A model generated the notes under the pieces. That model did no database searches and was not told where the DNA came from. It saw only the letters and a program-made list of their open reading frames with translations. Below are positions 20,823-55,466 of a stretch of 64,000 nt of DNA, piece by piece (within the stretch, counting starts at the first letter, position 1; every line of letters begins with the position of its first letter). The translations under genes and the position numbers were made by a program. Source of the DNA: an uncultured Gemmatimonadaceae bacterium (lineage in GTDB: Bacteria > Gemmatimonadota > Gemmatimonadetes > Gemmatimonadales > Gemmatimonadaceae); NCBI GenBank assembly GCA_963716745.1, contig OY970320.1, forward strand, positions 2,304,001 to 2,368,000, in the 5' to 3' direction.

Positions 20823-21881
20823 ATGGGAGGAAAGATGCTGAAGCCTCAGGGACATTTCGACGAAGGGCCTGAGCCGAGCATGAGAAGATCCCACGACGAC
20901 CCGCGCCCGTGCACTCGTGCGCGCGAGACATTCGACTGCGATGATCCCGTTTGCCTCAGTGAGGCATTTCGCGGCGTACTCGACGAACTGCGCCGTTACG
21001 CGCGGATCCCTAGCGTCGCGATCCTCCTGCAAGGAGAATCCGGCACGGGCAAGACGATGCTCGCCGAATATGTCCATAAACACTCGCCGCGCGCCGCGAA
21101 GCCATTCGTCGTGGTCGATCTTGCCGCGATCCCCAATGCGCTGATCTCCTCAGAACTGCTCGGCCACGTGCGCGGCGCCTTCACGGGCGCCAGCGGGAAT
21201 CGCACGGGGCGATTCGCCGAAGCGAGCGGCGGCACACTCTTCTTCGACGAAGTGGGCAAAGCGAGCCTGGACGCGCAGAAGTATCTCCTGCGCGGCGTGG
21301 ACGAGCAGCGGATAACGCCGGTCGGATCGAATCGCGAACTCAAAGTGGATGTGCGCTTCGTATCCGCGACTATAAACGCGTTGCCGGATCTCGTGAAACG
21401 CGGAGCGTTCCTGGCCGATCTCGTGCCGCGCCTCGCGCGTCACACGGTGGTGATTCCACCGCTTCGTCAGCACCGCCGCGACATTCCGCTGCTGGTCGAA
21501 CGGTTCATCGCCCGCCTCGCCGACGAGATCGAATACAAGGCGCTCCCATCGGTGGCACCCGATCTCATGGCGGCACTGGTGCGCGCACCGTGGCCCGACA
21601 ATGTCCGCGAGCTCGCGACAGCAGTGCAGGGCCTCATGATCGAGGGCTATCCTTCGCCCGTGTTGGAGTTGAAGCATCTCCCTCGCGAGTTCAAGCATTT
21701 GTGCGCGAGAGTGAACGGGCGGTGCCCGACGCTGGAAGAGCTCCAGTCTGCCACGAGCGAGACTAAGACCAAGGCCGAAGCCGCCGCACTTCTCGGAAAG
21801 AGCCGTGCAACGCTCTATCGCTGGAAGAAGAAGCTCGAACAAGACCAAGTGCAGGATCGGACCGAGCCTCGCGCCGGCTGA
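20823..21881 (+). CDS. sigma-54-dependent enhancer-binding protein (AAA+ and HTH, no receiver domain)
   Basis: GESGTGKT, SELLGHVRGAFTGA, GGTLFFDEV, WPDNVREL, HTH AAALLGKSRATLYR. Confidence 0.9.
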   Translation: MGGKMLKPQGHFDEGPEPSMRRSHDDPRPCTRARETFDCDDPVCLSEAFRGVLDELRRYARIPSVAILLQGESGTGKTMLAEYVHKHSPRAAKPFVVVDLAAIPNALISSELLGHVRGAFTGASGNRTGRFAEASGGTLFFDEVGKASLDAQKYLLRGVDEQRITPVGSNRELKVDVRFVSATINALPDLVKRGAFLADLVPRLARHTVVIPPLRQHRRDIPLLVERFIARLADEIEYKALPSVAPDLMAALVRAPWPDNVRELATAVQGLMIEGYPSPVLELKHLPREFKHLCARVNGRCPTLEELQSATSETKTKAEAAALLGKSRATLYRWKKKLEQDQVQDRTEPRAG

Positions 21882-21889
21882 AGAAGTCT

Positions 21890-21932
21890 TCGCGCGCGCC
21901 GAGACAGTGTGAGACGTCTCGGCGAGGCGCGA
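21890..21932. promoter_or_regulatory. palindrome, candidate upstream activator sequence for the gsp operon
   Basis: CGCCGAGAC-N10-GTCTCGGCG inverted repeat about 80 bp upstream of a -24/-12 motif; could alternatively be a terminator. Confidence 0.45.
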
Positions 21933-22005
21933 TCTCCGCACACCGGCGCCGGTAGGAATGCCTAAAGCGTAGTCGTCGAGCGCGTTACGCGACGCGCGCT
22001 ACTCC

Positions 22006-22021
22006 TGGCCCGAGTCATGCA
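22006..22021 (+). promoter_or_regulatory. sigma-54 (-24/-12) promoter upstream of gspE
   Basis: TGGCCCGAGTCATGCA = TGGC...TGC with GG-N10-GC spacing. Confidence 0.7.
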
Positions 22022-22033
22022 ATAGCTCCGTGC

Positions 22034-23509
22034 ATGACCGCGCCGCACGCTCCCGCGTTCGCACTCGCCGAAGGCATCTCGCGCGAGTATCTCCTCCACC
22101 ATCGCGTGTGTCCTCGCGCCATCGGCGAGAGCGGCGCGGTGATCGTGAGCGTCGCGCCCGGCGCACGCCTTGATGCGCTCGACGACATCGCGCTCGCCTA
22201 CCGCCGCACGGTGACGACAGAGGATGCGACGGCCGACGAGATCGACCGCCTCATCGAGCGCCTCACCAATCGCGCCGAGCGCGAGATCGAGCTCGCGCGC
22301 GCCGACGCCGGCGGCGACGAGGATCTCTCGACCGATGTGCGCGATCTCGCGAATCAGCCGCCGGTGGTGCGCTATGTGAATCTGCTCGTGCGCGATGCGT
22401 ACGACGCGGGCGCGAGCGATATCCATCTCGAGGCGACGCGCTCCGGCCTCGCGGCGCGGTTCCGGCTGGACGGCGTTCTTTCCGCCGCGCCCGAACCGCC
22501 GCGCGAGATGCATCATGCCGTTGTCTCGCGCATCAAGCTCCTCGCTGAGATCGACATCGCGGAGCGGCGCCGTCCGCAGGACGGCCGCATTCGCGTGCGC
22601 ATGGAGGAGCGCGAGCTGGACCTTCGCGTCTCCACCGTGCCCACGATGTACGGCGAGAGCGTCGTGCTCCGTTTGCTCGACCGCGGCGGGCGCCCGGTGG
22701 GGCTCGCGGAACTCGGGATGGATCCCGCGACGCTCGAGAGCATGACCACGCTCGCGAACAAGCCGCACGGCATGCTGCTCGTGACCGGCCCGACGGGTTC
22801 CGGTAAGACCACGACGCTCTACGCCGCGCTCATGCGCCGGCTCACGCACGCCGAGAAGATCATAACTGTCGAGGACCCGATCGAGTATCAACTCGACGGT
22901 GTGACGCAGGTGCCCGTGCACCGCCAAGCCGGCGTCACCTTCGGCTCCGCACTGCGCTCGATCCTGCGCCAGGATCCCGACGTCATCATGGTAGGCGAGA
23001 TGCGCGATCCTGAGACGGCGGAGATCGCGATCCAGGCGGCGATGACGGGGCATCTCGTCTTCTCCACGCTGCATACGAACAATGCGATCGCCACGATCCC
23101 GCGATTGCTCGACCTTGGCGTGCCCGACTATCTCGTTGGCGCGACACTCGAGGCCGTGCTCGCTCAGCGGCTCGTGCGGCGCATCTGCGAGGCGTGCCGC
23201 GTGGACTATCGGCCCAGCCCCGAGAGCGTGTCGCAGATCTCCGGGCGTCCGGTGGGAAAGGTGAAATTGACGAAAGGCGCTGGCTGCGCGCGCTGCGGCA
23301 ACACCGGCTTCCGAGGGCGCGTCGGCCTGTTCGAACTGCTGGTGCTCGACGATCAGCTCAAGGACGCGATCGTGCGCGGCGTCACGCGCATCGAATTGCG
23401 CACAATGGCTGAAGAGCACGGCATGCGGCCGCTTCGCGTGGATGGCTGGAGCAAGGTCGAAGCGGGGCTCACTACGGTAGAGGAGGTGCTGCGTGTCGTT
23501 CAACAATGA
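22034..23509 (+). CDS. gspE: type II secretion ATPase
   Basis: ASDIHLE, RRPQDGRI, GPTGSGKTTT, TVEDPIEY, RQDPDVIMVGEMRD, TGHLVFSTLHTN, zinc-binding Cys pairs. Confidence 0.92.
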   Translation: MTAPHAPAFALAEGISREYLLHHRVCPRAIGESGAVIVSVAPGARLDALDDIALAYRRTVTTEDATADEIDRLIERLTNRAEREIELARADAGGDEDLSTDVRDLANQPPVVRYVNLLVRDAYDAGASDIHLEATRSGLAARFRLDGVLSAAPEPPREMHHAVVSRIKLLAEIDIAERRRPQDGRIRVRMEERELDLRVSTVPTMYGESVVLRLLDRGGRPVGLAELGMDPATLESMTTLANKPHGMLLVTGPTGSGKTTTLYAALMRRLTHAEKIITVEDPIEYQLDGVTQVPVHRQAGVTFGSALRSILRQDPDVIMVGEMRDPETAEIAIQAAMTGHLVFSTLHTNNAIATIPRLLDLGVPDYLVGATLEAVLAQRLVRRICEACRVDYRPSPESVSQISGRPVGKVKLTKGAGCARCGNTGFRGRVGLFELLVLDDQLKDAIVRGVTRIELRTMAEEHGMRPLRVDGWSKVEAGLTTVEEVLRVVQQ

Positions 23510-23960
23510 CGGCGGGCGGCGCCCGCGCCGCGGGGGCTTCACGCTCATCGAGCTGCTCGTGGTGATCGCGATCATCGCGACGCTCGCGGCCGTGGTCGCG
23601 CCGCAGATCTTCCGGAACGTGGGCGACGCTAAGGCGAGTGCGGCCAAGAGTCAGATCGAGATCTTCGCGCTCGCGCTCGATTCATACCGGCTCGACAACG
23701 ACAATTATCCCACGTCGGACCAGGGGTTGGGCGCATTGCGCACGGCGCCGACAACAGGCGAACTGCCGCGGAATTGGCGCGGACCGTACCTGCGGAAAAC
23801 AGTGCCGCTGGACCCATGGGGGCGGCCGTACGTGTTCGTGTCGCCCGGGCATGAGAACCCCGGATCGTACGATCTCTACTCGCTGGGCCGCGACGGCAAG
23901 GCGGGCGGCGAGGGCGAAGACGCCGACATCACTTCGTGGGGCGGCGCGGTGAAGCCATGA
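23493..23960 (+). CDS. gspG: major pseudopilin
   Basis: G|FTLIE prepilin site, YPT..QGL.AL, WRGPYL, DPWGRPY, SLGRDG..GGEGEDADI. Confidence 0.95.
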   Translation: MSFNNDGGRRPRRGGFTLIELLVVIAIIATLAAVVAPQIFRNVGDAKASAAKSQIEIFALALDSYRLDNDNYPTSDQGLGALRTAPTTGELPRNWRGPYLRKTVPLDPWGRPYVFVSPGHENPGSYDLYSLGRDGKAGGEGEDADITSWGGAVKP

Positions 23961-25159
23961 GCCCCGCGATCGCCGGCACCGCGTACAACTACCGCGCGGC
24001 GCGTCTCGACGGCGCGCTCGAGAGCGGCGTGCTCGACGCCGAGTCGCGCGCTGCGGCGTCGGCGGCGCTCACCGAACGCGGGCTCTTCCCGATCGAGATC
24101 TCCATCGCCCGCGAGCACGCGAGCGAACGCGTCGCGCTCCCGGTGGCGGATCTCGCCGTGGGACTGCGCGTGCTCGCGACGCTCATTGAGAGCGGTCTCT
24201 CCATGTCGCGCGTGCTCGCGACATTCGCCGAGCTGGCGCCGGCGTCGTGGGAGAAGCTCACGCCGTCGCTCGCCGAGGCGGTGCGGTCGGGCAGCAGTCT
24301 GGGCGCGGCGCTCGCCGCGGCGCCGGTGGAGATCCCGCCCGTGGTGGTGGGTATCATCCAAGCTGGCGAAGGTGGAAGCGGGATCGCCACGGCGGTTCGT
24401 CGCGCCGCCGAACTCACCGAGAGCACCGCCGCGCGGCGAGCGGCCATTCGCGCCGCGCTCGCGTATCCCGTGATCCTCGCGGTGGCCGGCACCGCATCGG
24501 TTGCGCTGCTCGTGGGCGTCGTGCTCCCGCGCTTCTCCGCGATCCTCGCCGATCTCGGACAAGCGCTCCCTCCAGCAACGCGGCTCGTGCTCTCGCTGTC
24601 TGAGTTCGTTCGCGCCGCGGCGTTCCCGGGACTCATTGCGCTCATCGCTGTCGCGCTCGCATGGCGTGCATGGGTGCGCACGGACGCCGGCGCGCGGCGA
24701 TGGAACGAGCTGCTTCTCGGAATTCCCCTGGTGGGCGCGATCCGGCTCTCCGCCGCGAGCGCCCGCGTTTGCGCCGCGCTCGCGTCGCTGCTCGAGAGTG
24801 GCGTGTCGGTGTCCGGTGCCATGCTGCATGCCGCGCGCGCTGCCGGCGATGCGGAGATCGCGGTGCGCGTTCGCGCGTCGCGCGAGTCCGTGGTCGCGGG
24901 GCAGGGCATGGCGCGCGCACTTGGCGCCACGACCGCCGTCACCGGCACCGCGGTGCGCCTCATCCGCGCGGGCGAAGAGACCGGCCAATTGCCCGCGATG
25001 CTCTGGCACGCCGCCAAACTCGAAGGCGAGTTGGCAGAGCGCCGGCTGCGCGACATCGTGCGCCTGCTCGAACCCGCGCTGATCGTGATCTTCGGCGGCA
25101 TGGTCGCACTTGTCGCGGCGGCCCTCCTGCAGGCGATCTACTCGGTGCGCGCCACATGA
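23957..25159 (+). CDS. gspF: type II secretion inner-membrane platform protein
   Basis: AALAYP, GEETGQL, LLEPALIVIFGGMV; two GspF repeats. Confidence 0.9.
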   Translation: MSPAIAGTAYNYRAARLDGALESGVLDAESRAAASAALTERGLFPIEISIAREHASERVALPVADLAVGLRVLATLIESGLSMSRVLATFAELAPASWEKLTPSLAEAVRSGSSLGAALAAAPVEIPPVVVGIIQAGEGGSGIATAVRRAAELTESTAARRAAIRAALAYPVILAVAGTASVALLVGVVLPRFSAILADLGQALPPATRLVLSLSEFVRAAAFPGLIALIAVALAWRAWVRTDAGARRWNELLLGIPLVGAIRLSAASARVCAALASLLESGVSVSGAMLHAARAAGDAEIAVRVRASRESVVAGQGMARALGATTAVTGTAVRLIRAGEETGQLPAMLWHAAKLEGELAERRLRDIVRLLEPALIVIFGGMVALVAAALLQAIYSVRAT

Positions 25160-25464
25160 TACCGCGCGCCGGAGTGACGCTCGTGGAACTCATCGTCGTG
25201 ATCGCGATGCTCGGCGTGATCGCCGGCGTCACCGGCGTCGCGTTCACGCGCGCGCGCCCGGTGAGGAGCATCGATGCGAACGCCGCGATAGTCGCGGCGG
25301 CGCGGGATTCAGCGCTCAGAACTGGGCGTGCGGTGACACTGCAGGTCTCGGCGCTCGGCGCCCGGCGTTCGGCGGAATTCACGGCGTATCCGGACGGTCG
25401 TGTGATCGCCGACTCATCGCTCGGCATCGACGAGCTTACCGGGAGGCCCGCCCATGCTCCATAA
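25156..25464 (+). CDS. minor pseudopilin (GspH-like)
   Basis: G|VTLVELIVVI prepilin motif. Confidence 0.8.
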   Translation: MIPRAGVTLVELIVVIAMLGVIAGVTGVAFTRARPVRSIDANAAIVAAARDSALRTGRAVTLQVSALGARRSAEFTAYPDGRVIADSSLGIDELTGRPAHAP

Positions 25465-25846
25465 CCGCCGACAGCCGACAGCCGACAGCCCGGTTCACCG
25501 CCGTTCGGGTGCGGTCTTACTGGAAGCCATGATCGCCCTCGTGATCCTCGCGAGCGCCGGCATCGTCGTGGTGTCCCTCGTCGCGGAATCGGCGCGCGCC
25601 GTGGAGCGCGTGCACGAATCCGAGAGCGAGATGCGCGCCGCGAACGCGTTCTTCAATGCCGTGGCGCTCTGGTCGCGCGACGGATCTCGACCGCCACCTG
25701 GGTGACCGGCACAGGGACACTGGATCATGCGCGTGGACCGCCCCGGCGCGACGCTGTATGTGGTGACGCTCAGCGACTCCATCACGCGCGCGACCGTGCT
25801 CAGCACATCGCTCTACCGGCCGGAGCTGCAGCATGCCGCGCCGTAG
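25454..25846 (+). CDS. minor pseudopilin (GspI-like), apparent frameshift near 25680
   Basis: G|AVLLEAMIAL prepilin motif; a continuation in another frame ends at TAG 25846, overlapping the next start. Confidence 0.7.
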
Positions 25847-26364
25847 CGGGTTCACGATCATCGAGGTCATGGTGGCGCTCGTGGTGAGCGGCATCGTGCT
25901 CGTGGGCGCGCGGTCGATCCTGGAGACCGTGGCCGATCGTGCGGGCAGCATCACGCGCGCGGCGAGCGTGGCGGACCGCGATGCGAACGGCGAGAGAATG
26001 CTCCGCGCCCTCGTGGACCGGCTGGAAGTGGGCACCGGCCCGGGCACCGAGTTCGGCGGGGATCCGACATCCACGGCGTTCGCATCGTGGTGCGAGGTAG
26101 CCGGCGGATGGCAGGAGCGGTGCACCGTGAACATCGAGCTGGTGCGCGACAGCTCGGCTGTCGATCTCGTGTCTGCGCACATCGCTCGGCGATCGCATCG
26201 TGCTGCGCCACGGGCTCAAGAACGGTGCGATCCGCTACCTGAGCACGCCGGACGGCGGAGGAACGTGGATCAGGGTATGGGGCGCCGGGATCACCGCGCC
26301 TGTGGCGATCGGCGTCTTCCTCGAACGCGACACGCTCTATCTGCGCGTGGGAGAGCGCGGATGA
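25833..26364 (+). CDS. minor pseudopilin (GspJ-like), apparent frameshift near 26180
   Basis: G|FTIIEVMVAL motif; the alternative frame ends LRVGERG at an ATGA overlap. Confidence 0.7.
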
Positions 26365-27267
26365 GCGCGCGCCCGCGTCGCGGCTTCGCACTGCTGGCGG
26401 TGCTCTGGGTGATCGCCGGCCTCGCCGCGCTCGCGCTTGGCGTGTCGCTCGCCGCGCGAGAGGCGGTGGCGTCCGCGCACAACCGGAACGATCTCGTGCG
26501 CGCGCAGTGGCGCGCGGAGGAATGTGTCGAGCAGGCGCGTGCGATCATCGCGGCCGCGATGGCCGGCGGTGAATGGCGGCGGCTGGACAAAGTCGTTGCC
26601 GCGGCCACGCATGCGCATTCGGATTGCGAAGTGATCATGCGCGCGGCCGGCACGCGCCTCGATGTGAACACGATCGATGCCGATGCGCTGGGCGTGTTGC
26701 TTGGCCGCCTGGGAGTTCCGGTTCACGAGCGCGATTCGCTCACCGATGCACTGCTCGATTGGCGCGATCGCGACGACGATCCGCGGCCCAACGGCGCCGA
26801 GAGAGGCTGGTACCTGTCGCGCGGCCTGCCGGTGCCCCGCAACGGTCCGCTCGCCGACGTGCGCGAGCTGAGGCGGGTCCGCGGATTCGACCGCGTGCAC
26901 GGCCTCGACAGCTTGCTCGGCACCGAGAACGAACGGATCGCGCTCGAGCATGCGCCGCTCGCGGTGTTGGCGGCGCTGCCGGGATTCTCGCCCGAAGCCG
27001 TGAGCCGTGTGGCTGAGCTTCGCGCGCGCGGCGAGAGCATCGGCGATCTCATCGTGTTCGCGGGTGGACTCTCACCGAATGCGAAGGATGCGTTGCTGGC
27101 GCGCTACTCCGACCTCGCCGCGCGTACCACTGTGGACCCCGATGCGTTCACCGCTGATCTCGATCGCCACCGTCGGCTCGCCGGCGGTGCGCGCGGCGAT
27201 CGAGATTCGCCTCGTTCGGTCCGGCGCGCGCGCCGCGATCGTTCGGCGGCGCACGTGGGTGCTATGA
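26361..27267 (+). CDS. gspK: minor pseudopilin GspK, apparent frameshift near 27150
   Basis: G|FALLAVLW (no Glu5), LLDWRDRDD..RPNGAE, NGPL..V.EL..VRG motifs. Confidence 0.8.
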
Positions 27268-28448
27268 GCGCGTCGATAGGTCTCGCAGTGGCGAGCGATG
27301 AGTTGCGCGCGGTGCTGGTGCGCGACGGCACTGTGCTGTGGGCCGGGCGCAGTGGCCGCACGGCCGACGCGCCGTTGCCGGATCAAGTCCGCGATCTGCT
27401 CGCGCAGGCGCCTGCCCGCCGCTGGATGCGTCCCCGCGTGACCGGCGCCGTGGGCGCGAGCGCATCGCAGGTGAAACGTATCGAAGGGCTACCGCCAGTG
27501 AGCGATGCGGCCGCGCTCGCGCTCATCGTGCGCGAGGGTGCGGGCCGGTTCTTCATGCGGAACGGCATCCCGCTCGAGACGAGCGGCGTTCGCCCGGTCG
27601 AAGCCGGCGCCGCGTGGGCAGCGGCGTTCGAGCGGCCGATCATCGCGCAGATCGAGGCCGGAAGCCGCGCGGCCGGTCTGCGCGTCCGCGCGATCGTGCC
27701 GGCCGTGGTCGCGCTCGCACGCGCCAACGCGGACGCGCACGCGCAATGGGACGACGGCGATTGCCGCATCGAATTCACCGTGAGTGCTGGCGAACTTCGA
27801 TCGGTTCGCCGGATCGTGGCCGGCAACGTGCCGGAGCTGCCGTCCGTTCCCGCCGCTCTCGCATCACTCGGCGACGATGGTTGGCGATTCGCCGATGCGT
27901 ACGGCGCATCGCTCGTGCCGGACTCCGAGCCGCTCGCTATCCGCCCGCGTGGCGCGATCCACGCCGAGATCTCGCGCAGGCGGCTCACTATCGCCGCGGC
28001 CGCATGTGTGCTCGCGGCGTTCCTCGCGGCGGCGGCGCCCGGCATCGGCGCGGCGATCGATCGTGCGCGCGCCGAACGCGAGTTCGCGCAGTTGAGCCCG
28101 CACGTTCGAGCCGCGGCCGTCAGCGCGGAAGAGCTTCACCGTATGACCCGCGCGCTCGCGGAGTCCAATGCGCTCGCGGCTTCGCGCCGCTCGCCTACCG
28201 CCTTGATCGCCGCACTCGCGCTCGCACTTGGCTCCGGGTCCGCGCTCGTGACCTTGCGCGCGGACAGCGCGGGCGGGATGCTCGTGCTGCTTGCACCGCA
28301 CGCGGCCCGCGCCATCGCCGCACTCGACAGCGTGCCCGGCCTGATCGCACCCGAGATCGTGGGCCCGGTCACGCGCGAGGTGATGGGCAAGAGCGAAGTG
28401 GAACGCGTCACCGTGCGGTTCCGGCTCGTGCCCGTGGCCGCCAAGTGA
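27264..28448 (+). CDS. GspL/PilM-PilN-like assembly protein
   Basis: position in the operon; cytoplasmic domain, one TM segment, periplasmic domain; ATGA/GTGA coupling with neighbours. Confidence 0.6.
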   Translation: MSASIGLAVASDELRAVLVRDGTVLWAGRSGRTADAPLPDQVRDLLAQAPARRWMRPRVTGAVGASASQVKRIEGLPPVSDAAALALIVREGAGRFFMRNGIPLETSGVRPVEAGAAWAAAFERPIIAQIEAGSRAAGLRVRAIVPAVVALARANADAHAQWDDGDCRIEFTVSAGELRSVRRIVAGNVPELPSVPAALASLGDDGWRFADAYGASLVPDSEPLAIRPRGAIHAEISRRRLTIAAAACVLAAFLAAAAPGIGAAIDRARAEREFAQLSPHVRAAAVSAEELHRMTRALAESNALAASRRSPTALIAALALALGSGSALVTLRADSAGGMLVLLAPHAARAIAALDSVPGLIAPEIVGPVTREVMGKSEVERVTVRFRLVPVAAK

Positions 28449-29038
28449 CGCGCCTCAAACTCGGCAAACGCGACGGCCGCGCCTTGCTGCGCGGCGCGGC
28501 GGCGATCGCGCTGGTGCTCGCGGCCACGCGCGGCATCCCCGCCTGGCTCGACTGGCAGCGCGAATCGCGCGGCGCCGACGAAGAGACGCGCAATGCGCTC
28601 GCGCGCGATCGTGCGCTCGTGATGAACGAAGCCGCCGTGCGCGAGAGCACCATCGCGCGCGGCCGACGGCTCATCGCGCTAGCGCCGTCCATCCTCAGCG
28701 GCGACTCGCCGGGGAACGCCGGCGCGACACTGGCGGGCGTGCTCTCCGGAGCGGCCGCGCTCTCCGGCGTCCGCCTGGGATCCGTGCAGCTCCGCGGCGA
28801 CTCATTGTCGCGCACGGCGTTCACTCGCATCGGCGCGCGCATGGACGCCACTGGCGACATCCGCGGCGTGATCGCGATGCTCTCGGCGATCGAGAGCGGC
28901 CCAACGCTGCTCTCCGTGCGGTCGCTGTCGATCTCGCAGCCCGATCTCACCGCCGGCGACGATCGGGTAGAGGCACTGCACGTGGAGCTCGAAGTGGAGG
29001 GCTTGATGCTCAACCCCGCGAAACGGAGCGCCCCATGA
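28445..29038 (+). CDS. GspM-like assembly protein
   Basis: N-terminal TM segment, coiled coil, GDIRG...L.AIE..P.LL.V..L.I pattern. Confidence 0.65.
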   Translation: MTRLKLGKRDGRALLRGAAAIALVLAATRGIPAWLDWQRESRGADEETRNALARDRALVMNEAAVRESTIARGRRLIALAPSILSGDSPGNAGATLAGVLSGAAALSGVRLGSVQLRGDSLSRTAFTRIGARMDATGDIRGVIAMLSAIESGPTLLSVRSLSISQPDLTAGDDRVEALHVELEVEGLMLNPAKRSAP

Positions 29039-31973: not shown

Positions 31974-31977
31974 TGAG

Positions 31978-32030
31978 TGTCGCAAAGTGTCGCGCGACAA
32001 ACCCCCGTTGTCGCGCGACACTTTGCGACA
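31978..32030. promoter_or_regulatory. perfect 23-bp inverted repeat, candidate activator binding site upstream of rhs1
   Basis: TGTCGCAAAGTGTCGCGCGACAA-N7-TTGTCGCGCGACACTTTGCGACA; arms identical to 37131-37183. Confidence 0.75.
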
Positions 32031-32090: not shown

Positions 32091-32106
32091 TGGCACCGGA
32101 CGTGCT
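32091..32106 (+). promoter_or_regulatory. sigma-54 promoter of rhs1
   Basis: TGGCACCGGACGTGCT (GG-N10-GC). Confidence 0.75.
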
Positions 32107-32151: not shown

Positions 32152-35100
32152 ATGTCGTCCTCCCCCAGGTCTGTTGCCTCCCGCCGGTTCCTGTCGCTCT
32201 CAACGATGGCGGCCGCATTGATCATGCTCGCCGTACCCGCCCAACGGCTTGTCGCGCAGTGCTCCGGCCAACTGCAAACCATAAGCCCTTGCACAATATC
32301 GTTTCGATACCCTACCAGCACGGTAGCGCAAGCCGTCAACTACTTGATCACCAATTCCAATCGCATCAATGCCGCGAGTTATAGTCTGACATGTACGCCT
32401 TCTCCTTCGTCGTTGGCGAGTTGCTCCGTGCCGGGAGTCGTGGTCGTGCCAGCGGGCGGGAGCAAGGGATTTGCAATGCATTTTACCACGGGCAGCGCAG
32501 GAGGCTCGGGAACCATTACCGTGTCCGCCTCGGGCGGCAATGACGACCTCAGTGCGACTGTGAATCTTACGGTGGACCCCATGTCGATCACGCCGAAGGG
32601 GGCCGTAGCCGTCGACACACCCAGCACCGCCTACAAACAGATCTTTGTGGTCAGGAACACATCGTTCACGCCCGACACGTTGAACATTACCGTCAGCTGC
32701 GACGCGGCCATTGCATCGACGTGCACGCGGAGCCCGACTTCGCTCATCCTCGGTGCGGGGACAAGCGCCAATGACACCGTGAGCTATACCACTCAGGGCG
32801 AGAACAAGACCGGCTTGGTTCGCCTCATCGGCGTGATGAGCACCCACAGTACTGTGGCGGATACCGGCTGGGTCTCGGTCTCCGTCCCTGCGCCGCAACC
32901 GCCCGTTGTCTCGGCGCTGCCCACGAACGGGGATAACCACGCCGCAGCGCTGTGTTTATTGCAATGCTTCGACATGGTGACGAGCTACAGCACGCCGTCG
33001 TATACAAGCCGCGACGAACCACGATCCGCGACGCTCGTATATAACTCGGCGCAGGCAGCGCCAATGGGTGAGGTCGCGTTTGATGTGACCGATCCGACGC
33101 TGCGAGCTCCGGTCATCTCATTGTCTTTGCAACGCCCGAATGGGAGCAACGTCACGTTTACGAACGGCAATACAGAGCTGTATTGGAATGACTCGATCCC
33201 CGGTGCGACGGCGCGCGTGAGCGCGCAATTCTATGACAGTACACTGACGACGGGAGTATACGATTACACGGCCATTGTGAAGCTGCGTTGGACCAAGCAC
33301 CTGGATAGCGGGACAGTCACGCAAACGAACGTCCCGGTGCAGGTCCTCATCGTGAATGAACGGGCCAGTGTGTACGGAGCCGGATGGTCCCTCGCAGGCG
33401 CGCAGCGCCTCTATTTCCCGGCACTACCCGACACCAACATGATCCTGGTGAGCGACGGAGAGGGAGGGCTGGCACGTTTCGCCCGCTGGGGGCCGCTCAC
33501 GGCCAATCCGGCTGCCGCGGACTTCAGCACGATCACGACCGTGAAGAGCGGCGGCACGATCACCGGGTATGTTCGCGGATATGCCGACAGCACGAACCTT
33601 CGGTTCTCGGCGACCGGCTACTTGCTGAGTGTGAAGAATCGCTTTGGCGACAGCACCCGCTATCACTATGATGCCTCGAATCGCGTTGACAGCATCATCG
33701 ATCCGGCAGGGAAGGCGTTGGTGCTCGCGTACAGCAGCAACAAGATCAGCACGATCACCGATCCCGGTGGACGCGTGAGCCAGTTCACGGTGAACGCGAA
33801 CGGCGACCTTGCCACGATCAAGGACCCGACCGGCGCCACCACGTTCACGGGCACGTACGACACCACATCCGCGCCGACTACCGCCAAGCGCCATCATCTG
33901 CTCCAGCGCACTGATCGGCGCGGGAGTTCCTGGATCGCGACATACGACTTTGCGGGCAAGATCGCAACCGACAGCACGCCGCCCGTCTATGCCGATAGCG
34001 CTACAAAGCGGATAGGGAAGAGGTATCAATCGCTAGAAGTCGCCCAGTTGATCGACCCTGGATCGGGGTTAGGAACCTCAACCACCAACTACGCTCCGGA
34101 GCTTATTTCGTCTAACGTTCGACTTCTCGTGACCGCGTCCAATGGCGACTTCATGAGGTACGCTGTGGATCGGTTCGGGGCATCGACTCTCGTCGAGCAT
34201 CCGTGGGGCCTATCCACCGAGACTATCACGCGGGACGCGAACTCGCTTCCTACGCGCGCTCTGTCGGTACTCAATGGAAAGACGCTCGTGAATCAGGTCG
34301 TGGTTTACTCCCTGAACGGATCGCCGATCACTCAGGTCGACAGTCTCACGAAGGGCACCACGACGATCAGCTACGATACCAAATACAATCTCGTGACCTC
34401 AGTGAGCGGAGCTGTTGCAACGGTCTTTGCCAACTTCCTGAATGCGACGAAGAGCTGGGTCGACAGCACGCGCTTCGGCGTGTGCTGCTCGGACAGCACA
34501 GTGATCTATGTGCATGACACCCATGGGCGCACGACTCTTGTCCGAGACCAACAGCGGGATAGCACCGTATATTCCTTCGCCGCCGACGCATCGTTCGGCA
34601 ATCTTCTGTCGATTCAATTCGGCAACCGCCTGACTCAGATTCGGTACGACGGATATGGCCGTGCCGTCCGAGTACTCAATCCGAAGCGCGACAGCCTTAC
34701 TGTTTCGCTTGACTCGCTGAACCGCGCGCGGTCGGTGACCGATCCGGAGGGCGCGGCGGTAACGTATGGCTACGATTCGCTCTATCTCAAGTCCGTAACG
34801 GATAGGAAGGGGCAAAGCTATTCATTCGCGCGAGATGCGCTCGGTTGGGTGGATACGCTCACGAATTCCAACTCTGGCGATTCATTGACGCATCGCCTCG
34901 ACATATTTTGGTACTCCGCGCGAGGCTCGACCATCGCGCACTTCGACCGGCAGACGCCGCGAGTCCGCACGAGCTTCACCTACGACTCTCTCGGAAGGTT
35001 GCACTCGCGAACTCTTGGAAACGGCCAAACGACTACTTATGCGTACGATCCGAGCGGGCTCTCGCGCGCAGCCTCCAACGGAGAGTCGATCGATACATTA

Positions 35101-36987
35101 TCCGCAGACAGCGCCGCGATGCATCGAATCCAAGTCACACACCGTGGGACCCACCGATACACGGTTGCTCTCACGGCTGATTCCGTCGGCTACTTACGAA
35201 CGGTCGCCACTACGGCCGATGGCTCTACGTTGAAATCGGTCGCTCTCGACTACGATCTCGTAGGCCGATTGGCCTCGCTCACCGTGGGCGGCAATCAGAC
35301 ATCTCTCTCCTACAATAGAGATGGTATCCTCACGCAGGTCGCTCTTCCTACCCTCCCTGTGTTCTACGTCTATGACTCGGTGACCGCGGGCCACATGCCG
35401 TTCAAGGCGGATTACTCGATTACCGCCCTCGATCAGGCGTTCGGTGCGATCTACACGAGAGACACTTTGGATCGTATCGTGCAGCGCACGAAAGTGGCCC
35501 TCGATACGAGTTGGACGTACGCCTACGGCAATCTTGGGCGACTGACGGCGTATCAGGCCCTGAGTGACACTTCTGCGGAGACGTGCACACCTGATCAATT
35601 TCACCAGGATGGCCAGATCTGCACGAGCGCGCACGGACAGAAGGTGATCACACAGTCGAATTTCACGTATGACTCCGTGGGGAACCGAACCGACAATAGT
35701 GCAGTGCTCATCGCCGGCAATCGACTCACGAGCTTCAATGGCTTCACGCTTTCGTACGACTACAATGGCAACCTGACACACAAGTCCACCACGGGCTTCG
35801 ATCAGTACTATTACTGGAACAGCATTGGTGAGCTCGACAGCGTCAAGACCTTGAGAAGTGGAGTCGTCGATAGCGTCAGCTTCGGCTACGATGGATTCGG
35901 GCGCCGGGTGCGGAAGAGTCATATCGGCCATACGCTGCGCTACGTCTACAACGGCGACGACGTGATGGCCGAGATCGACTCGGCGACGGGCGCGGCGGTG
36001 CGCGTCTATACGTACTATGGACCGGATGTCCCACACTCTGTGACAAAGCAGGGAAAGACCGAGTACTATTTGCAGGACTTCGCGGCTGGACACGTCGTTG
36101 CGCTGATCGACAGCAACCGGGTAGTACGCGAGCGTTATCGCTATGGCCCGTGGGGGCAAGCGGAGGATTCGATGATAGCGGACACGGTCGCTCAGCCATA
36201 CCGCTACGCTGGAGGCACCTACGACCCCGAAACGCAACTCTACTATTTCCGCGCGAGGTACTACGATCCAGCGTTAGCTCGCTTCATCTCCGAAGATCCT
36301 ATCGGTCTCGGTGGCGGCATCAATCAGTACGCATACGTGCAGGATCAACCCATCGACGCGAGTGATCTGAGTGGAATGGTAGTAATAAAGGCGTGCCCCT
36401 ACGCCTTGCCTGACGGATACTACGTGTGTCGCCTTCCGGGAGGGCAGCTACTCATCAACAACGCCTCGTCGGCTATCTCTGGTCTGATTGGGATGCCTGC
36501 CTGCCTCCCTGAGGATTTGGGATGCTGGTACCCAACCGGCGATGATTCGCCGAAGACGGGAACTGGGGATTCATTGATGGATGCGTCGCTGAAGTTTGAG
36601 AAGTGCTTGCGGGACGGCACGGATCCCACAGGCTGTATTCCACAACCGCCTTCGGTGTCTGTAGCGTGCGGTGGCGACACCGGGCAGTACTTGTTCCAGT
36701 GCGACTGGTGGGTGGTAACGATCGTGGAGGCTCCGATGTTTTTCGTTCCGACCGATCCCAAGGGTGCGAGCAAGCCTACATTGCCTTACGATCCGATTCT
36801 CAAGTGCGCGATGGACACCGCCTGTCCCGTAATAGGGGCGGCCTCTTCACCGAAGCGCTACGAGTCTAGCTTCCCTGCGATAACATCCTCCGCGACGGGC
36901 TACTGCTCTAACATTGAGGCACTCGCGGCGGGAGCGGCACTCATTTGGGAGAGGTTCAGTGCAATCCTCATGGCGTGTTCACAATAG
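32152..36987 (+). CDS. RHS/YD-repeat protein with signal peptide, Ig-like N-terminal region and Cys-rich C-terminal domain
   Basis: many YD repeats; RHS core YYFRARYYDPALARFISEDPIGLGGGINQYAYV..P....DLSG; hydrophobic N-terminal signal. Confidence 0.92.
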   Translation: MSSSPRSVASRRFLSLSTMAAALIMLAVPAQRLVAQCSGQLQTISPCTISFRYPTSTVAQAVNYLITNSNRINAASYSLTCTPSPSSLASCSVPGVVVVPAGGSKGFAMHFTTGSAGGSGTITVSASGGNDDLSATVNLTVDPMSITPKGAVAVDTPSTAYKQIFVVRNTSFTPDTLNITVSCDAAIASTCTRSPTSLILGAGTSANDTVSYTTQGENKTGLVRLIGVMSTHSTVADTGWVSVSVPAPQPPVVSALPTNGDNHAAALCLLQCFDMVTSYSTPSYTSRDEPRSATLVYNSAQAAPMGEVAFDVTDPTLRAPVISLSLQRPNGSNVTFTNGNTELYWNDSIPGATARVSAQFYDSTLTTGVYDYTAIVKLRWTKHLDSGTVTQTNVPVQVLIVNERASVYGAGWSLAGAQRLYFPALPDTNMILVSDGEGGLARFARWGPLTANPAAADFSTITTVKSGGTITGYVRGYADSTNLRFSATGYLLSVKNRFGDSTRYHYDASNRVDSIIDPAGKALVLAYSSNKISTITDPGGRVSQFTVNANGDLATIKDPTGATTFTGTYDTTSAPTTAKRHHLLQRTDRRGSSWIATYDFAGKIATDSTPPVYADSATKRIGKRYQSLEVAQLIDPGSGLGTSTTNYAPELISSNVRLLVTASNGDFMRYAVDRFGASTLVEHPWGLSTETITRDANSLPTRALSVLNGKTLVNQVVVYSLNGSPITQVDSLTKGTTTISYDTKYNLVTSVSGAVATVFANFLNATKSWVDSTRFGVCCSDSTVIYVHDTHGRTTLVRDQQRDSTVYSFAADASFGNLLSIQFGNRLTQIRYDGYGRAVRVLNPKRDSLTVSLDSLNRARSVTDPEGAAVTYGYDSLYLKSVTDRKGQSYSFARDALGWVDTLTNSNSGDSLTHRLDIFWYSARGSTIAHFDRQTPRVRTSFTYDSLGRLHSRTLGNGQTTTYAYDPSGLSRAASNGESIDTLSADSAAMHRIQVTHRGTHRYTVALTADSVGYLRTVATTADGSTLKSVALDYDLVGRLASLTVGGNQTSLSYNRDGILTQVALPTLPVFYVYDSVTAGHMPFKADYSITALDQAFGAIYTRDTLDRIVQRTKVALDTSWTYAYGNLGRLTAYQALSDTSAETCTPDQFHQDGQICTSAHGQKVITQSNFTYDSVGNRTDNSAVLIAGNRLTSFNGFTLSYDYNGNLTHKSTTGFDQYYYWNSIGELDSVKTLRSGVVDSVSFGYDGFGRRVRKSHIGHTLRYVYNGDDVMAEIDSATGAAVRVYTYYGPDVPHSVTKQGKTEYYLQDFAAGHVVALIDSNRVVRERYRYGPWGQAEDSMIADTVAQPYRYAGGTYDPETQLYYFRARYYDPALARFISEDPIGLGGGINQYAYVQDQPIDASDLSGMVVIKACPYALPDGYYVCRLPGGQLLINNASSAISGLIGMPACLPEDLGCWYPTGDDSPKTGTGDSLMDASLKFEKCLRDGTDPTGCIPQPPSVSVACGGDTGQYLFQCDWWVVTIVEAPMFFVPTDPKGASKPTLPYDPILKCAMDTACPVIGAASSPKRYESSFPAITSSATGYCSNIEALAAGAALIWERFSAILMACSQ

Positions 36988-37130: not shown

Positions 37131-37183
37131 TGTCGCAAAGTGTCGCGCGACAACCGGGCTTTGTCGCGCGACACTTTGCGACA
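37131..37183. promoter_or_regulatory. second copy of the 23-bp inverted repeat, upstream of rhs2
   Basis: arms identical to 31978-32030, different 7-nt spacer. Confidence 0.75.
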
Positions 37184-37244: not shown

Positions 37245-37260
37245 TGGCACTAAACCTGCC
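37245..37260 (+). promoter_or_regulatory. sigma-54 promoter of rhs2
   Basis: TGGCACTAAACCTGCC (GG-N10-GC), ~61 bp after the palindrome, as at rhs1. Confidence 0.75.
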
Positions 37261-37301
37261 TTAGTGCAGAGCGACGACCCACACTCCATCAGGAGCCGGC
37301 C

Positions 37302-40300
37302 ATGTCGCTCAGCCATGTTCTTGCGCCTTTGTTCGCCGTCATTGCTGTGGTTCCGCCGACACCCCCGGCACCCGCGACCGCGCCGAGCAGTGCGCCGACG
37401 CCGACGCGCCTCTTCTTGTGCCCCGGGACGGTCGAGCAGCTGAGCCCCTGTACGGCTTCAGGGAGCACGACCACGAACAATCAGTTCCAAGAGGTATACG
37501 GGCTCTCGAACAACTCGATCGAGGATGATGACGTATCGATCGAGCTCTCCGGCCTGTCGAGCTCGATAGCGACGTGCACCTCGAACGTCCCCGACGTGAC
37601 CGTTCGATCGCATGGCGCCGCCAATTTCATCGTGACCTGCACAGGTGGCGCTGGCGGAGGCTCGGGAAATCTGACTGTCACTACCCTCGGCATCGCGGAA
37701 CTCACTTCCACCTTGACCGTGACGGTCACCGCCCCGAGCACCATTTCCGTGACTCCACAGACCACGTTGAACACCACGGCCCTTCCGAATACGGCTTACA
37801 AGCAGATCTACACCATCACCAATCTCTCCAGTACGGCAGTGAGCGATAGCACGTTCGTCACGTGCGACGCGGGCGAGACCTCGTGTTCGGTGAAGCCGAG
37901 AGTCCTATCGCTCGGCGGGAACGCCTCGGGAACGGATACCCTTTTCTATTCATCGGTTGGTTCAGGTACCAGCGGAACCGCGACCCACACGGCTAAAGTG
38001 ACCGGTCAACCGAACTCCGTTGCGACGAGCACGATCTCTGTGGCCGTGCCCGCTGCAATGGCGCCGAGCGTGGGTTCCTACCCGCAGAACGGCGACATTC
38101 GCTCGCCCGGGATGTGCGCTGTGTCCTGCCTCGATAAAGTCGCAGCGTTCAGCACGCCAGCATACACCAGCTATGACACCCCACGTTCCGTGACGCTCTT
38201 CTACTCGAGCGCACAGGCCGCGCCAATGGGAGAGGTCCAGCTGCAGGTTGCTAATGCGAGTGCGCGCCCTCCGAATCGAGATGTCGCTCCAGCTGCAGCG
38301 CCCCAATGCTAGCTTCGTGACGTTCACGAACGGCGCGAACGAGCTCTTTTGGAGCCAGCCCTCGACCGCTTTTTATAGGATTGGAGGGCAGTTCGACGCG
38401 AGTATGCTCACGACCGGGGTGTATAACTACACCGCCATCGTGAAGTCCCGCTGGACGCTGCACGGACCCGATAGCGGTACCGTTACGCAAACGACCGTGG
38501 CCGTGAAGGTATTGATCGTAAACGGGCGAAATGGATCTTACGGCACCGGCTGGTCGGTGGCGGGCCTGCACCGCCTTCGCTTCCCGGTTGCGCCGGACAC
38601 CCTCACGATCCTGGACACCAATGGGTCCGGCGGGATTGTGCGATTCACGCAGGCGTCGAAGAATGCGGTGGCTGTCCCAGCGGCGGCAGACTATACCACG
38701 ATCACCACCACACTGAGCGGATCGACCGTCACCGGCTATAAGCGGATCTTCCCGAGTGGCGACACGCTCTTCTACTCATCCACCGGCTACCTGATCCTCT
38801 CGAAGAACCGGCTTGGCGACAGCACGCGCTTCCACTACAACGCGAGCTCGTTGTTGGACAGCATCATCGATCCAGCGGGGAAGGCGGTGAAGCTGCTCTA
38901 TACGGGGAACGGGTTGTTCAGCATCACGGACCCTGGTGGCCGCGTGACCATGTTCAACATCGCCGCGGTCGGCGGCGATATGCAGAACATCACCGACGCA
39001 ACGGGCACGATCGCGTTCGCCGGGACCTACGATGCCTCACATCGCCTGACGCAGGCGATCGACCGGAGCGGCACGAACACGTGGCTGAGCCGCTACGACT
39101 TCGCCGGCAAGCTTGCATCGGACAGCACACCGGCCGTATGGGCGGATAGCACCACAGCCAGAATCGGCGGACGTTATCATTCGCTCCAATCGGCCTTCCT
39201 CATCGACCCCGCCTCTGGGAAGGGCACGGCAGCGAACGCCGCAACTCCCGTGCTGGAGGATAGCATTCGCGTGGCGGTCGTTTCGCCAAGCGGCGATTCT
39301 GTGCGATACGCCCTGGATCGGTACGGGGCACCGACGATCACCGACATGCCGAATCAGAAGACCACGATCGTGACCGCGCGGAACCCCGACGGCACGGTGT
39401 ATCACTCGATCACGACGGCGCGGGGAAGGGTGGTCTCCACGATCTGGACGTGGTGGGTCAACGGCCAGGTGATCACGACCACGGACAGCATCACAAACGC
39501 GACGATCGTCTATACATACGACAGTAAGTACGGTTTACTGACGGACGTCGGTGGGAATACGACTCCGGTAAAGAACTTCCTGAATCTGGCAAAGAGCTGG
39601 GTAGACAGCACCCGCACCGGAACGTGTGGCGCATGCACCGACAGTGTGACGCGGTACTCGCACGAATCGCACGGCCGGCTTAACAAACTCATCGATCCGC
39701 AGCTCGACACCACGGTGTACACTTTCGACACGGCGAGCGCAGGATTCAAGAATCTGCTCTCGACTCGGCAGGGCCCTCATACCACCACTCTCCGGTACGA
39801 CGGGTATGGTCGAGCAGTCCGTGTGATCAATGCGCGCGGAGACAGCGCGATCGTATCGCTCGACTCGCTCAATCGGACCAGGAATGTGAAGGGCCCGCAG
39901 GGCAGCATTGTGTCATACACTTACGACCCGCTCTTCCTGCGCACCGTCACGGACGCGAAGAGTCAGGTTTATTCGTACTATCGGAATGCGCTCGGCTGGA
40001 TGGACTCCGTGGTGAATGCGAACACCGGTGACCCGGCCGCTAATCGTGTGGATAAGTACGAGTACAGCAAGCTGGGGCTGACCAAGGCGCACATTAACCG
40101 TCGAGGTCAGCGCACGAGCATGACCTATGACCAACAGGGCCGCCTGCTCACGCTCAACCTTGCGGGTGGACGCGTCTCGAACTTCGCGTACGACACAGCG
40201 GGTCTCTGGGCGAAGGCCTGGAACGGAGAGTCGTTCGACAGTATACGCACGGACAGTACGGGCCTCTGGACGGTCCAGTACACGAAACGTGGGACGCACT

Positions 40301-42230
40301 GGTTCACGGACAGCTCCACGGTGGATATCACCGGTTTGCCGCAATCGTTCACCGTCAAGGGGGAGACCAGCACGTTGTCCGCCATCACGTATGGCTACGA
40401 CTCGAATCGACGTCTTAATTCGATGACGGTCGACGGTAAGCTCACGAGCTTTGTCCACAACCGCGATGGCATGCTGACTTCCCTGAGTCTCCCAACCTCA
40501 CCGCAGCAGACCATCGGTTTTTCAGTCACGCGCGGCCACGAGGACTATTCAGTAACGTACTCGAAGCCGCCGAACACTCTCTACGATCAGCTCGCTGCAT
40601 ATCTCAACTTTGACTCGCTCGGCCGGATCCGTCAGCGGATCAAGCTGCGCCAGGATACGACAAGGTCGTACGCGTACGATTCGGTCGCGCGACTGACCAA
40701 TTATCAGGTCTTGCAGGACACCTCGGCATTGAGCTGCCTCGTCGATGCCGCGGGCTTCGCGGGAGAGCGTTGCACGAGCGCGCACGGCGAGAAAGTCCTT
40801 TCTCAAACGACGTTCACATACGACAGCGTCGGAAACCCGACCGATGGCGGGGCGACAGTCATAGCCGGCAATAGATTGACGGCGTACAATGGCTACACTC
40901 TCACGTACGACTACGACGGCAACCTGACACATAAGCACAGTTCGACGTTCGACCAGCTTCTCTACTGGAACAGCATCGGGCAGCTCGACAGCGTGAAGAC
41001 GGGTACATCGCTAGTCAGCTATGGCTACAATGCAATGGGCCGTCGCGTACGCAAGACCACGGCGACCCAGTCTCTACGCTACATCTACGCCGGCAGTCAG
41101 ATGATCGCCGAGATAGATTCGGCCACCAATAGCGCGGTTCGGGTGTACTCCTATTACGGCACGGAGCCCCCCACAGCGTGAAAACAGCCACGGGTACCTA
41201 CTATTACATATCGGAAATGGGAACAGGTCACGTCGTCGCGCTGATCGACAGCCTCAATGTGGTGAAGAATCGGTACCGCTATAGCCCGTTCGGCCAGCTC
41301 GAGGATTCGAGCGAGACGATTCTTCAATCCGATCCGCTTCGCGGGCCGCGAATACGATGCGGAGACCCAACTCTACTTCAATCGCGCGCGATACTACGAC
41401 GCGAAGTCTCCGTCGGTTCGTGTCGGAGGACCCCATCGGCCTCGGCGGCGGGATAAACCAGTATGCGTACGCGAGCAATGACCCGATCAATCATCGGATC
41501 CGTGCGGTCTATTCTGACTGTTGGACCTCGACAGGAGTGCCCCGCCAACTAGGCGTCGAAACAGACGGCAGCTGCAGTGCATGGCGGCAGCGCGGGCGGC
41601 GGGGGCGGTGGTGGTGGCGGCGCCGGCGGGGATGGTGGACACTACGATTACGAATCAACCTACCACGAAGGCGGAGCTGTTGTGGTAGGCAATACTGGTG
41701 GTATTGGGGCCTGTAACCCAAATGTAATGGTGGGCGCAGATTACAAATGGTGCAATTCTAGCGGCGGACTGGTCGCGGGGGTCAACGGATACTGGACCTC
41801 TACTCTGGCCTGGGTTGCCAATGGTGGAACAATGTCAATGCCGCAGCCAATGAGTGGCGGCGGGGGCGGCGGTGGTGGTGGAGCCGACGGAAGTTCCCCG
41901 GCGTCTAGAGAGACGTTTGGGCAATGCCTGCTCAATAAGAACAAAGGCCTCGCGACAGACTTGTTGGTGGCGACAGGCATCGTTACGCCGATTGCGTACG
42001 GCATGTCGGTGGAATCAGGCGGGGCCGCCGCAGGCGCTATCGGAACTGGCGTCGCTAGGGGGCTCGGAACATTCGGTATCAGGACTCTCGTCGCGGAGGG
42101 CGCGACGGCGGCGACGGAGGGCGCTGCGGTCGCTGCTGGCGGGGCCGCACTTGCTGGCGCTGGATTCATTGCGTCGATTGTGCTAGTTACAGAGGCTGTC
42201 TTGGCGGTGGAGTGTGCGAACCACTGGTGA
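37302..42230 (+). CDS. second RHS/YD-repeat protein, paralogue of rhs1, split by several frameshifts (near 38270, 41170, 41330-41580)
   Basis: AGGAG RBS; ORFs 37302-38312, 38248-41181, 41178-41456, 41357-41716 and 41577-42230 are collinear with rhs1 (SAQAAPMGEV, IIDPAGKA, EDPIGLGGGINQYAY). Confidence 0.85.
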
Positions 42231-42274
42231 AGGCTGGTTCGCACCAGCCACTAGCACCTTCGAGGACGGAGGAG

Positions 42275-42577
42275 ATGAGTCCAACAAGCATGAACGATCC
42301 TGACCAGAAGGGTATTAGTGCCGCGAGCCGATTGGGTACCAATGCTCGGCCGATTGCGATTGGTGCGTTCGCGGGGTTCATCGCAGGAGTACTGCAGGTC
42401 GCGAGAGAGATCTATCATCACGACTTCGTCTCGTCGAGTTTGGAGCCGGGCGCACTGCCCCCGGTATTGCGGTCCGTTGGACTCATTCTATTCGCGATTG
42501 CCGTCGGGGCAGTCGTTTATCCACTCTTGATGGCGGGGTTGCAAGCCGTCGCGCGGAGGTCCGCGCGACCTCGATGA
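42275..42577 (+). CDS. small two-TM protein, candidate immunity protein for the rhs2 C-terminal domain
   Basis: GGAGGAG RBS, two hydrophobic helices, directly downstream of rhs2. Confidence 0.55.
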   Translation: MSPTSMNDPDQKGISAASRLGTNARPIAIGAFAGFIAGVLQVAREIYHHDFVSSSLEPGALPPVLRSVGLILFAIAVGAVVYPLLMAGLQAVARRSARPR

Positions 42578-55465: not shown

Positions 55466-55466
55466 G

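Follow-up and report, generated by a model that had tools for sequence, protein, structure and literature searches.

A type II secretion operon with sigma-54-type regulators and adjacent RHS genes in a Gemmatimonadaceae genome

Within a 64,000-nt stretch of the genome of an uncultured Gemmatimonadaceae soil bacterium (C1:2304001-2368000, hereafter the window), a complete gene set for a type II secretion system (T2SS) lies together with two genes for sigma-54 enhancer-binding proteins (EBPs) and two genes for large RHS proteins. The genome is a single contig of 3.29 Mb with a marker completeness of 89.8%. RHS toxins of diderms are usually treated as cargo of a type VI secretion system (T6SS). 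Here, we lean, with some but not strong confidence, towards a sigma-54-controlled T2SS with Sec-exported RHS toxins as its main cargo. The pairing of T2SS and RHS recurs across the phylum, which makes it probable that a pathway different from the T6SS takes these toxins out of the cell.

Gene content of the secretion module

The module was mapped with Pfam and NCBIfam scans, plots of GC content at third codon positions (GC3) by frame, and tblastn with the intact genes of a related locus, L006. All its genes are on the forward strand. The first, at 20823-21881, had been taken for gspE in the initial annotation; by its match to Pfam Sigma54_activat (2.6e-50) it encodes an enhancer-binding protein (EBP1), with GAFTGA at aa 118. 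The gene of the secretion ATPase, gspE, is at 22034-23509 (Pfam T2SSE, 1.1e-128). It is followed by gspG for the major pseudopilin (23493-23960; T2SSG, 5.7e-39), gspF for the inner-membrane platform (23936-25159; T2SSF, 4.7e-34; top model GspF), three minor pseudopilin genes resembling gspH, gspI and gspJ (~25156-26355; located by tblastn with the L006 genes and by N_methyl motifs) and gspK for another minor pseudopilin (~26340-27255, start approximate; T2SSK_1st, 3.4e-16, and NF037980 on the L006 orthologue). A gspL-like gene (27264-28448) comes next, then gspM (28445-29038; T2SSM_b), whose GTG start overlaps the gspL stop, a gspC-like gene of 153 aa (29064-29525) and the secretin gene gspD (29492-30998). 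The predicted order E-G-F-H/I/J-K-L-M-C-D is confirmed as a complete set.

The two RHS genes do not follow gspD directly, as had been read at first, since EBP2 (30995-31973; GAFSGA, HTH_8) intervenes, its ATG overlapping the gspD stop as ATGA. Downstream of it are the two RHS paralogues of the expected size, RHS1 (32152-36987; 1611 aa, intact) and RHS2 (37302-42230; ~1640 aa if read through, frame-broken). The RHS block had been drawn as far as 42577. Its last part, 42212-42577, is a separate open reading frame (ORF) outside RHS2, encoding 121 aa with two hydrophobic helices, and by its position it is a candidate immunity protein for RHS2.

Several components were compared with models that separate the T2SS from related machines. 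GspG scores 168.8 bits against TIGR01710, well past its equivalog cut-off of 88.85, and GspM, scored on the L006 orthologue, passes NF040576 (GspM_XpsM) with 62.6 bits against a cut-off of 60. GspE is matched best by the GspE model (548 bits, with PilB at 502), under the equivalog cut-off. For GspF and GspK, too, the T2SS model scores best, yet under the cut-offs, and GspD is matched best by the GspD model with 263.6 bits, under the cut-off of 351. The secretin carries an N0 domain in addition to Secretin_N and Secretin, and in the unbroken orthologue from L006 the Secretin domain is complete. GspL and GspC were assigned from position and conservation alone. The gspL-like gene, without a Pfam match, has an L006 orthologue and is conserved among relatives. 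The gspC-like ORF, likewise without a Pfam match, is conserved in its place before gspD and is 71% identical to its L006 counterpart; its C-terminal beta-domain presumably resembles the HR/PilP region of GspC.

No prepilin peptidase was found among the window ORFs scanned, as first reported, and a PF01478 match lies elsewhere in the genome (C1:1251662-1252006). On these matches the T2SS gene set appears complete, with the peptidase supplied from outside the cluster. No second secretin of this kind was detected by tblastn of the window proteins against the whole genome, and the sole other pair of E and F homologues belongs to a PilB/PilT/PilC cluster near 1.505-1.509 Mb. The initial annotation had contrasted the cluster with a housekeeping T2SS; to judge from the tblastn search, the module is instead the only T2SS of this genome.

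In the assembly, gspJ, gspK, gspD and EBP2 each have one frame break and RHS2 at least four, giving at least eight in 22 kb; RHS1 has none. The breaks lie at ~26200 (gspJ-like), ~27150 (gspK), ~30753 (gspD, one base) and ~31195 (EBP2), and the frame of RHS2 changes at ~38250, ~41175, ~41330-41400 and possibly ~41600. One explanation is a decaying island, in which the breaks are real, the affected genes (gspD, gspJ, gspK, EBP2 and RHS2) have become pseudogenes and this strain has no working module. The number of breaks, at least four of them within RHS2 while RHS1 is unbroken, would fit it. However, the essential rpoC gene (C1:2764247-2768286, outside the window) is split into at least seven pieces in three frames in the same assembly, with rpoB whole, and rpoN, thiG and an amidohydrolase gene are split as well (window positions 55400-55700 and 11950-12400 are among the split regions). 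The GC3 coding signal also runs uninterrupted across every break in the module. Because rpoC itself is in pieces, we read the breaks as most likely sequencing or assembly errors and hold decay of the module to be very improbable. A relative's contig is one base short at exactly 30753, the site of the gspD break. Among the runs listed, only one DNA sequencing run covered any of the stretch (a share of 0.05), as a few exact pieces of 151-189 nt that lie within RHS1 and RHS2 and do not reach the breaks, and no RNA sequencing run covered it. The reads thus leave the RHS2 breaks uncovered, and RHS2 itself may be decaying. One-base frame errors are numerous in the assembly, and pseudogene calls anywhere in this genome need read-level support.

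Linkage and regulation

The conservation of the gsp-rhs linkage, which the initial annotation had proposed to check, was followed in 79 loci from a secretin-based scan, all from Gemmatimonadota metagenome genomes save two probably mis-binned records. RHS ORFs were recognised with a profile hidden Markov model built from 29 ORFs of these loci, which recovers ORFs flagged independently by Pfam. Linkage was counted in those 62 loci whose sequence continues for 3 kb or more beyond the secretin match. In 41 of them an RHS ORF is the next on the same strand after gspD, and in 40 its start is no more than 3 kb away, right behind the EBP gene. RHS genes were found downstream on the opposite strand only in six loci and upstream only in seven, so that 54 of the 62 have RHS somewhere in their flanks. 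In 51 of 61 related loci, gspD is succeeded by an EBP gene, and several metagenome-assembled genomes have two or three of these modules, spread over separate contigs. Judged by gene neighbourhood, the link between T2SS and RHS is strongly conserved in the phylum.

Both regulators are reduced in architecture. EBP1 consists of an AAA+ domain with the GAFTGA motif and a helix-turn-helix (HTH) domain, with ~45 aa ahead of the AAA+ domain and no receiver or sensor domain, and EBP2 has no N-terminal regulatory domain either. The genome contains rpoN (PF04552). Candidate sigma-54 sites were scored against the consensus TGGCAC-N5-TTGC. The site before gspE, TGGCCCGAGTCATGC (22006-22020, forward strand), is 28 nt 5' of the ATG and is the weakest of three. 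RHS1 and RHS2 each have their own predicted promoter on the forward strand with one mismatch to the consensus, TGGCACCGGACGTGC (32091-32105) and TGGCACTAAACCTGC (37245-37259), 47 and 43 nt before the respective ATG, and each ATG is preceded by a GGAG-type Shine-Dalgarno sequence. An identical palindrome with 23-nt arms and a 7-nt spacer is found ~60 nt 5' of each RHS promoter, at 31978-32030 and at 37131-37183. Its arm has four occurrences in 3.29 Mb, all of them in these two palindromes, and the same type of palindrome is present in two relatives (L057 and L046). A palindrome upstream of a -24/-12 site is how EBP binding sites and sigma-54 promoters are usually arranged.

Sigma-54-like sites are not enriched as such: 50 were found in the window against 62 expected, which is not above chance, so the argument lies in position and conservation, and by these only would the three sites be meaningful. 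Among 34 relatives, 19 have a -24/-12 site within 250 nt ahead of the RHS start, compared with 311 of 4823 background windows (6.4%); the 34 are the 42 RHS ORFs minus eight for which the start-finding heuristic failed. Before gspE, a site was detected in 19 of 47 loci within a 300-nt window, mostly 29-65 nt upstream. The view that the genes form one co-regulated unit is well supported by the two EBP genes in the cluster, the sites before gspE and both RHS genes, and the genome-unique palindrome. EBP1 and EBP2 would activate the sigma-54 promoters of an operon reaching from gspE to EBP2 and of each RHS gene. EBP2 would be the last gene of the T2SS operon, translationally coupled to gspD, and the RHS promoters would share the palindrome as a private upstream activating site (UAS), to which one or the other EBP would bind.

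RHS proteins and their possible export

The genome has no RHS genes besides RHS1 and RHS2. The two proteins are 48-50% identical in the core and 37% in the N-terminus. RHS repeats (PF05593) match with 3.5e-24 in RHS1 and 1.5e-28 in a piece of RHS2, and TIGR01643 also matches. The Rhs core (TIGR03696) was found in RHS1 at aa 1331-1409 with 83.5 bits against a cut-off of 32.5, and core matches in RHS2 are divided over several frames. A DPIGL motif in the RHS translation is one that we take to be the Rhs-core motif. RHS1 consists of a putative signal peptide (aa 1-35), two immunoglobulin (Ig)-like domains (aa ~36-245), the RHS shell, the core and a C-terminal domain of 204 aa. By inspection, its N-terminus has a classical n/h/c layout, RR...FLSLSTMAAALIMLAV...LVA|Q. 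A lipoprotein signal at LVAQC was considered and rejected, as relatives have no Cys at +1; the Gln at -1 is also, we assume, an ill fit to a lipobox.

The Ig-like N-terminal region, initially read from composition, folds as such in a structural model. A word-based search with RHS1 aa 36-330 gave four relatives only, and the alignment of the region was built from the loci. The AlphaFold model of aa 36-340 (31-row alignment) has two beta-sandwiches, with a predicted local distance difference test score above 90 for aa 36-245, and the closest solved folds are Ig-like domains of the ASH/HYDIN/CEP192 type. Three Cys columns of the region are invariant and a fourth is nearly so. The C-termini of RHS1 and RHS2 are unrelated to each other. 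That of RHS1 contains 12 Cys in its 204 aa and found no family in Pfam and no usable match in an Atlas search. That of RHS2 is Gly-rich and hydrophobic and is followed by the two-helix membrane ORF; no Pfam match was obtained for this C-terminus, for the 121-aa ORF or for a 90-aa downstream ORF.

Among relatives, a signal-peptide-like start was recognised by a simple heuristic in 34 of 42 RHS ORFs and by eye in five more. On this count, Sec-type N-termini appear to be the rule for these proteins. Behind them the N-terminal modules vary, and include Ig-like arrays, CARDB and an RCC1 propeller. The RCC1 beta-propeller is carried by the RHS protein of L006 (L006:12495-19340), and another unusual module, a phycobilisome-linker/DUF4214 domain, by a T2SS-linked RHS protein at L080:12612-17642 on the reverse strand. 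Of 32 complete C-termini, only three have a Pfam match outside RHS_repeat (to Tox-REase-7, eCIS_core and DUF6973). At L044:12615-17657, 3' of a T2SS-EBP locus, five short same-strand ORFs (~195-225 aa) each match the RHS profile; they may represent orphan cassettes for RHS C-termini, arranged as an array.

In the mechanism that we favour, Sec would export the RHS proteins to the periplasm, where the disulfide-containing Ig-like domains would fold and the RHS shell would enclose the polymorphic C-terminal toxin. The pseudopilus would then push the folded protein through the GspD secretin to the cell surface or the medium. Outside, the Ig-like domains would bind a target, to which the C-terminal domain would be delivered. 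Both the passage through the T2SS and an antibacterial role of the RHS proteins are what we infer from gene content and linkage. A complex prediction for GspD N0-N1 (aa 30-262) with the Ig pair of RHS1 gave no answer (score 0.00) and is evidence neither way. More tentatively, and with clearly less confidence than in RHS as main cargo, the T2SS of Gemmatimonadota may have been recruited as a dedicated toxin launcher. The gsp paralogue, the EBP and the private UAS would then form a cassette specialised for the adjacent RHS gene, and the Ig-like, RCC1 and CARDB modules would serve export recognition and/or target binding.

A T6SS route finds no footing in this genome. The initial annotation had seen no PAAR domain in either RHS protein; this holds, and no match to TssC, PAAR or VgrG (PF05943, PF05488 and TIGR03361) was obtained in the whole single-contig genome. 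As far as these markers show, a T6SS is excluded here.

It is also conceivable that the RHS proteins are presented on a fibre, with a pseudopilus or short pilus carrying them at its tip, or with RHS docked at the secretin, and delivery on contact. The T2SS is a member of the type IV filament superfamily, the PilB model matches GspE almost as well as the GspE model does, and the Ig, RCC1 and CARDB domains on the RHS N-termini are adhesin-like. Nevertheless, GspG and GspM pass T2SS equivalog cut-offs, GspK and an N0-bearing secretin are present, the RHS proteins carry apparent Sec signal peptides and not prepilin leaders, and the genome has a separate PilB/PilT/PilC cluster. We consider such contact-dependent delivery improbable.

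Several observations weigh against RHS toxins as the main cargo of this T2SS. Of the two N-termini that had been described as signal-like, that of RHS1 stands, with its classical layout, but that of RHS2 is hydrophobic without a basic residue, which by inspection makes an atypical signal peptide. The candidate immunity ORF 3' of RHS2 has no counterpart at the other RHS gene, as no ORF able to encode an immunity protein was found after RHS1. If the frame breaks were real, gspD and RHS2 would be pseudogenes. Eight of the 62 T2SS loci have no RHS gene in their flanks. The reverse association is looser. Forty family genomes were sampled. Of these, 21 have the Rhs core (a count that includes the unpublished G029), 10 a strong match to this secretin and nine TssC. 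RHS is present in eight of the 10 secretin-positive genomes, and an RHS core was also detected in 13 of the 30 without a strong match to this secretin, G029 among them. Among 29 full-length RHS genes from 16 genomes, seven are downstream of gspD, one is divergent beside gspE, two have an EBP gene only and 12 have at least 5 kb upstream free of gsp genes; the remaining seven are uninformative as their contigs are too short. Thus, eight of 22 informative RHS genes adjoin a T2SS. Five RHS-positive, secretin-negative genomes were tested, and four of them (94-100% complete) lack a full-length GspG, with pilin-type N-terminal matches only; one of these genomes, G018, has no TssC either. Therefore, signal-peptide RHS proteins in this family can, by these searches, exist without this machine. 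The pattern appears asymmetric: this type of T2SS is nearly always found with RHS, and RHS is not always found with the T2SS.

Another reading is co-regulation without cargo. The RHS proteins would be exported by Sec and then remain periplasmic or in the outer membrane, unless vesicles or lysis released them. Other proteins, or helper factors of the toxins, would be what the T2SS exports, and the two would be neighbours only through their shared sigma-54/EBP circuit. Signal-peptide RHS proteins in family genomes without a detectable secretin of this type or GspG fit this reading, as do the 12 informative RHS genes far from any T2SS; furthermore, this is the genome's only T2SS, so other substrates may well exist. 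However, in 40 of 62 loci the position behind gspD and the EBP is taken by RHS, and no other gene class recurs there. Beside the T2SS-unlinked RHS genes, only unrelated neighbours were found and no other outer-membrane export partner recurs, and T2SS dependence has a precedent in Xanthomonas. We regard co-regulation without cargo as rather unlikely, if the most serious of the alternatives, and continue to favour RHS toxins as the main cargo of the T2SS.

Two T2SS-unlinked RHS genes in different genomes have a Peptidase_S24 (LexA-like) gene one to two genes upstream (L085:12331-13104 and L096:11146-12168), and unlinked RHS toxins may be under SOS-type control. A further RHS ORF, of 2592 aa and without a signal peptide (L082:9724-17499; G011:C25), has an N-terminus that by eye is SpvB/TcaC-like, as in the B/C proteins of Tc toxins; a T6SS and a T2SS-RHS module are present in its genome too.

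Just upstream of the module, two divergent genes encode MacB_PCD/FtsX permeases of ~835 aa (13592-16093, reverse strand, and 16395-18911, forward strand). The flanks also contain intergenic long palindromes of CAGTCAACAG-like 9-mers, roughly one per 2-3 kb. They lie at 1808-1991, 7796-8012, 9903-10088, 11159-11342, 13389-13597, 16193-16365, 18950-19123 and 19697-19851 on the left and at 51713-51839, 55026-55259 and 56273-56480 on the right. None was found in the 22-kb T2SS-RHS block, so that the absence of a long inverted repeat from 20823-42577, noted initially, is upheld.

Relation to known systems

The evidence that we found for a T2SS route of RHS toxins in earlier work consists of the phenotype of a single Xanthomonas mutant and, from a preprint, the proximity of gspG. 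A conserved module of T2SS operon, regulator and toxin in a poorly studied soil phylum is much stronger genomic evidence for such a route, and it offers experimental handles in its promoter, UAS, EBP and secretin. If the proposed mechanism is true, T2SS substrates would extend to shell toxins of ~170 kDa, and interbacterial competition by Gemmatimonadota without a T6SS would be explained. If the T2SS is indeed a dedicated launcher, it would do what T6SS-Rhs warfare does elsewhere, with a diffusible or surface-displayed toxin, in a phylum of which most sampled genomes lack a T6SS (TssC in nine of 40). The many RHS C-terminal domains that match no family form a reservoir of putative toxins not yet described.

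EBPs without a regulatory domain are known in PspF and in HrpR/HrpS, the latter a paralogue pair that controls a secretion system. EBP1 and EBP2 resemble them in having AAA+ and HTH domains only, and differ in that no partner or anti-activator was identified for them. Dedicated T2SSs encoded beside their substrate are likewise known, such as Hxc with LapA and Txc with CbpE in P. aeruginosa, and Pul with PulA. As in those systems, the T2SS cluster, a regulator and the putative substrate gene are adjacent here. However, the substrates of Hxc, Txc and Pul are enzymes or binding proteins and not RHS proteins, and their regulators are not known to be sigma-54 EBP pairs.

T6SS effectors of the PAAR-Rhs type, such as Photorhabdus Rhs1 (PMC8636562), share the RHS shell, the core and a putative polymorphic C-terminal toxin. 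In contrast, they bear PAAR or a VgrG-binding region at the N-terminus, have no signal peptide and start their export in the cytoplasm, and here PAAR, VgrG and TssC were not found. Zhang et al. (2012, PMC3482391) gave the label 'T2SS/Sec-dependent' to RHS toxins that begin with a signal peptide, which they placed in the general secretory pathway, and the proteins described here appear alike in this respect. That class is defined by the signal peptide alone, and its Table 1 entry gives no signature neighbourhood genes and speaks of a 'default pathway'.

The closest functional precedent is Bcn-A of X. perforans, an RHS/WapA-like bacteriocin of 1398 aa that is active in cell-free supernatant and inactive in an xpsD mutant (Marutani-Hert et al. 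2020, PMC7259588). Like RHS1 and RHS2, it is a large RHS protein of a diderm, and it depends on the T2SS for its activity and has a membrane immunity protein encoded nearby (PMC7259588). It differs in coming from a proteobacterium whose housekeeping Xps system is encoded elsewhere, and no complete gsp operon, sigma-54 EBP or private UAS is described at the toxin gene (PMC7259588). Two further Rhs families, XRhs F VIII of Xanthomonas and RRhs F II of Ralstonia, were reported in a preprint as linked to gspG, with T2SS export predicted and, as the authors say, functionally unconfirmed (bioRxiv 10.1101/2025.05.08.652813). Those families are, in that text, linked to gspG only, whereas the module described here has the whole E-G-F-H-I-J-K-L-M-C-D set with regulators, belongs to another phylum and is often multicopy. 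In the literature searched, nothing was found on a T2SS-RHS link in Gemmatimonadota. The idea that RHS proteins are exported by a T2SS is already published, and the reading proposed here is not wholly new. What appears to be undescribed, so far as we found, is the union, outside the phylum of those precedents, of a complete T2SS operon, an EBP, a private UAS and an RHS toxin in a single module that is conserved and often present in several copies.

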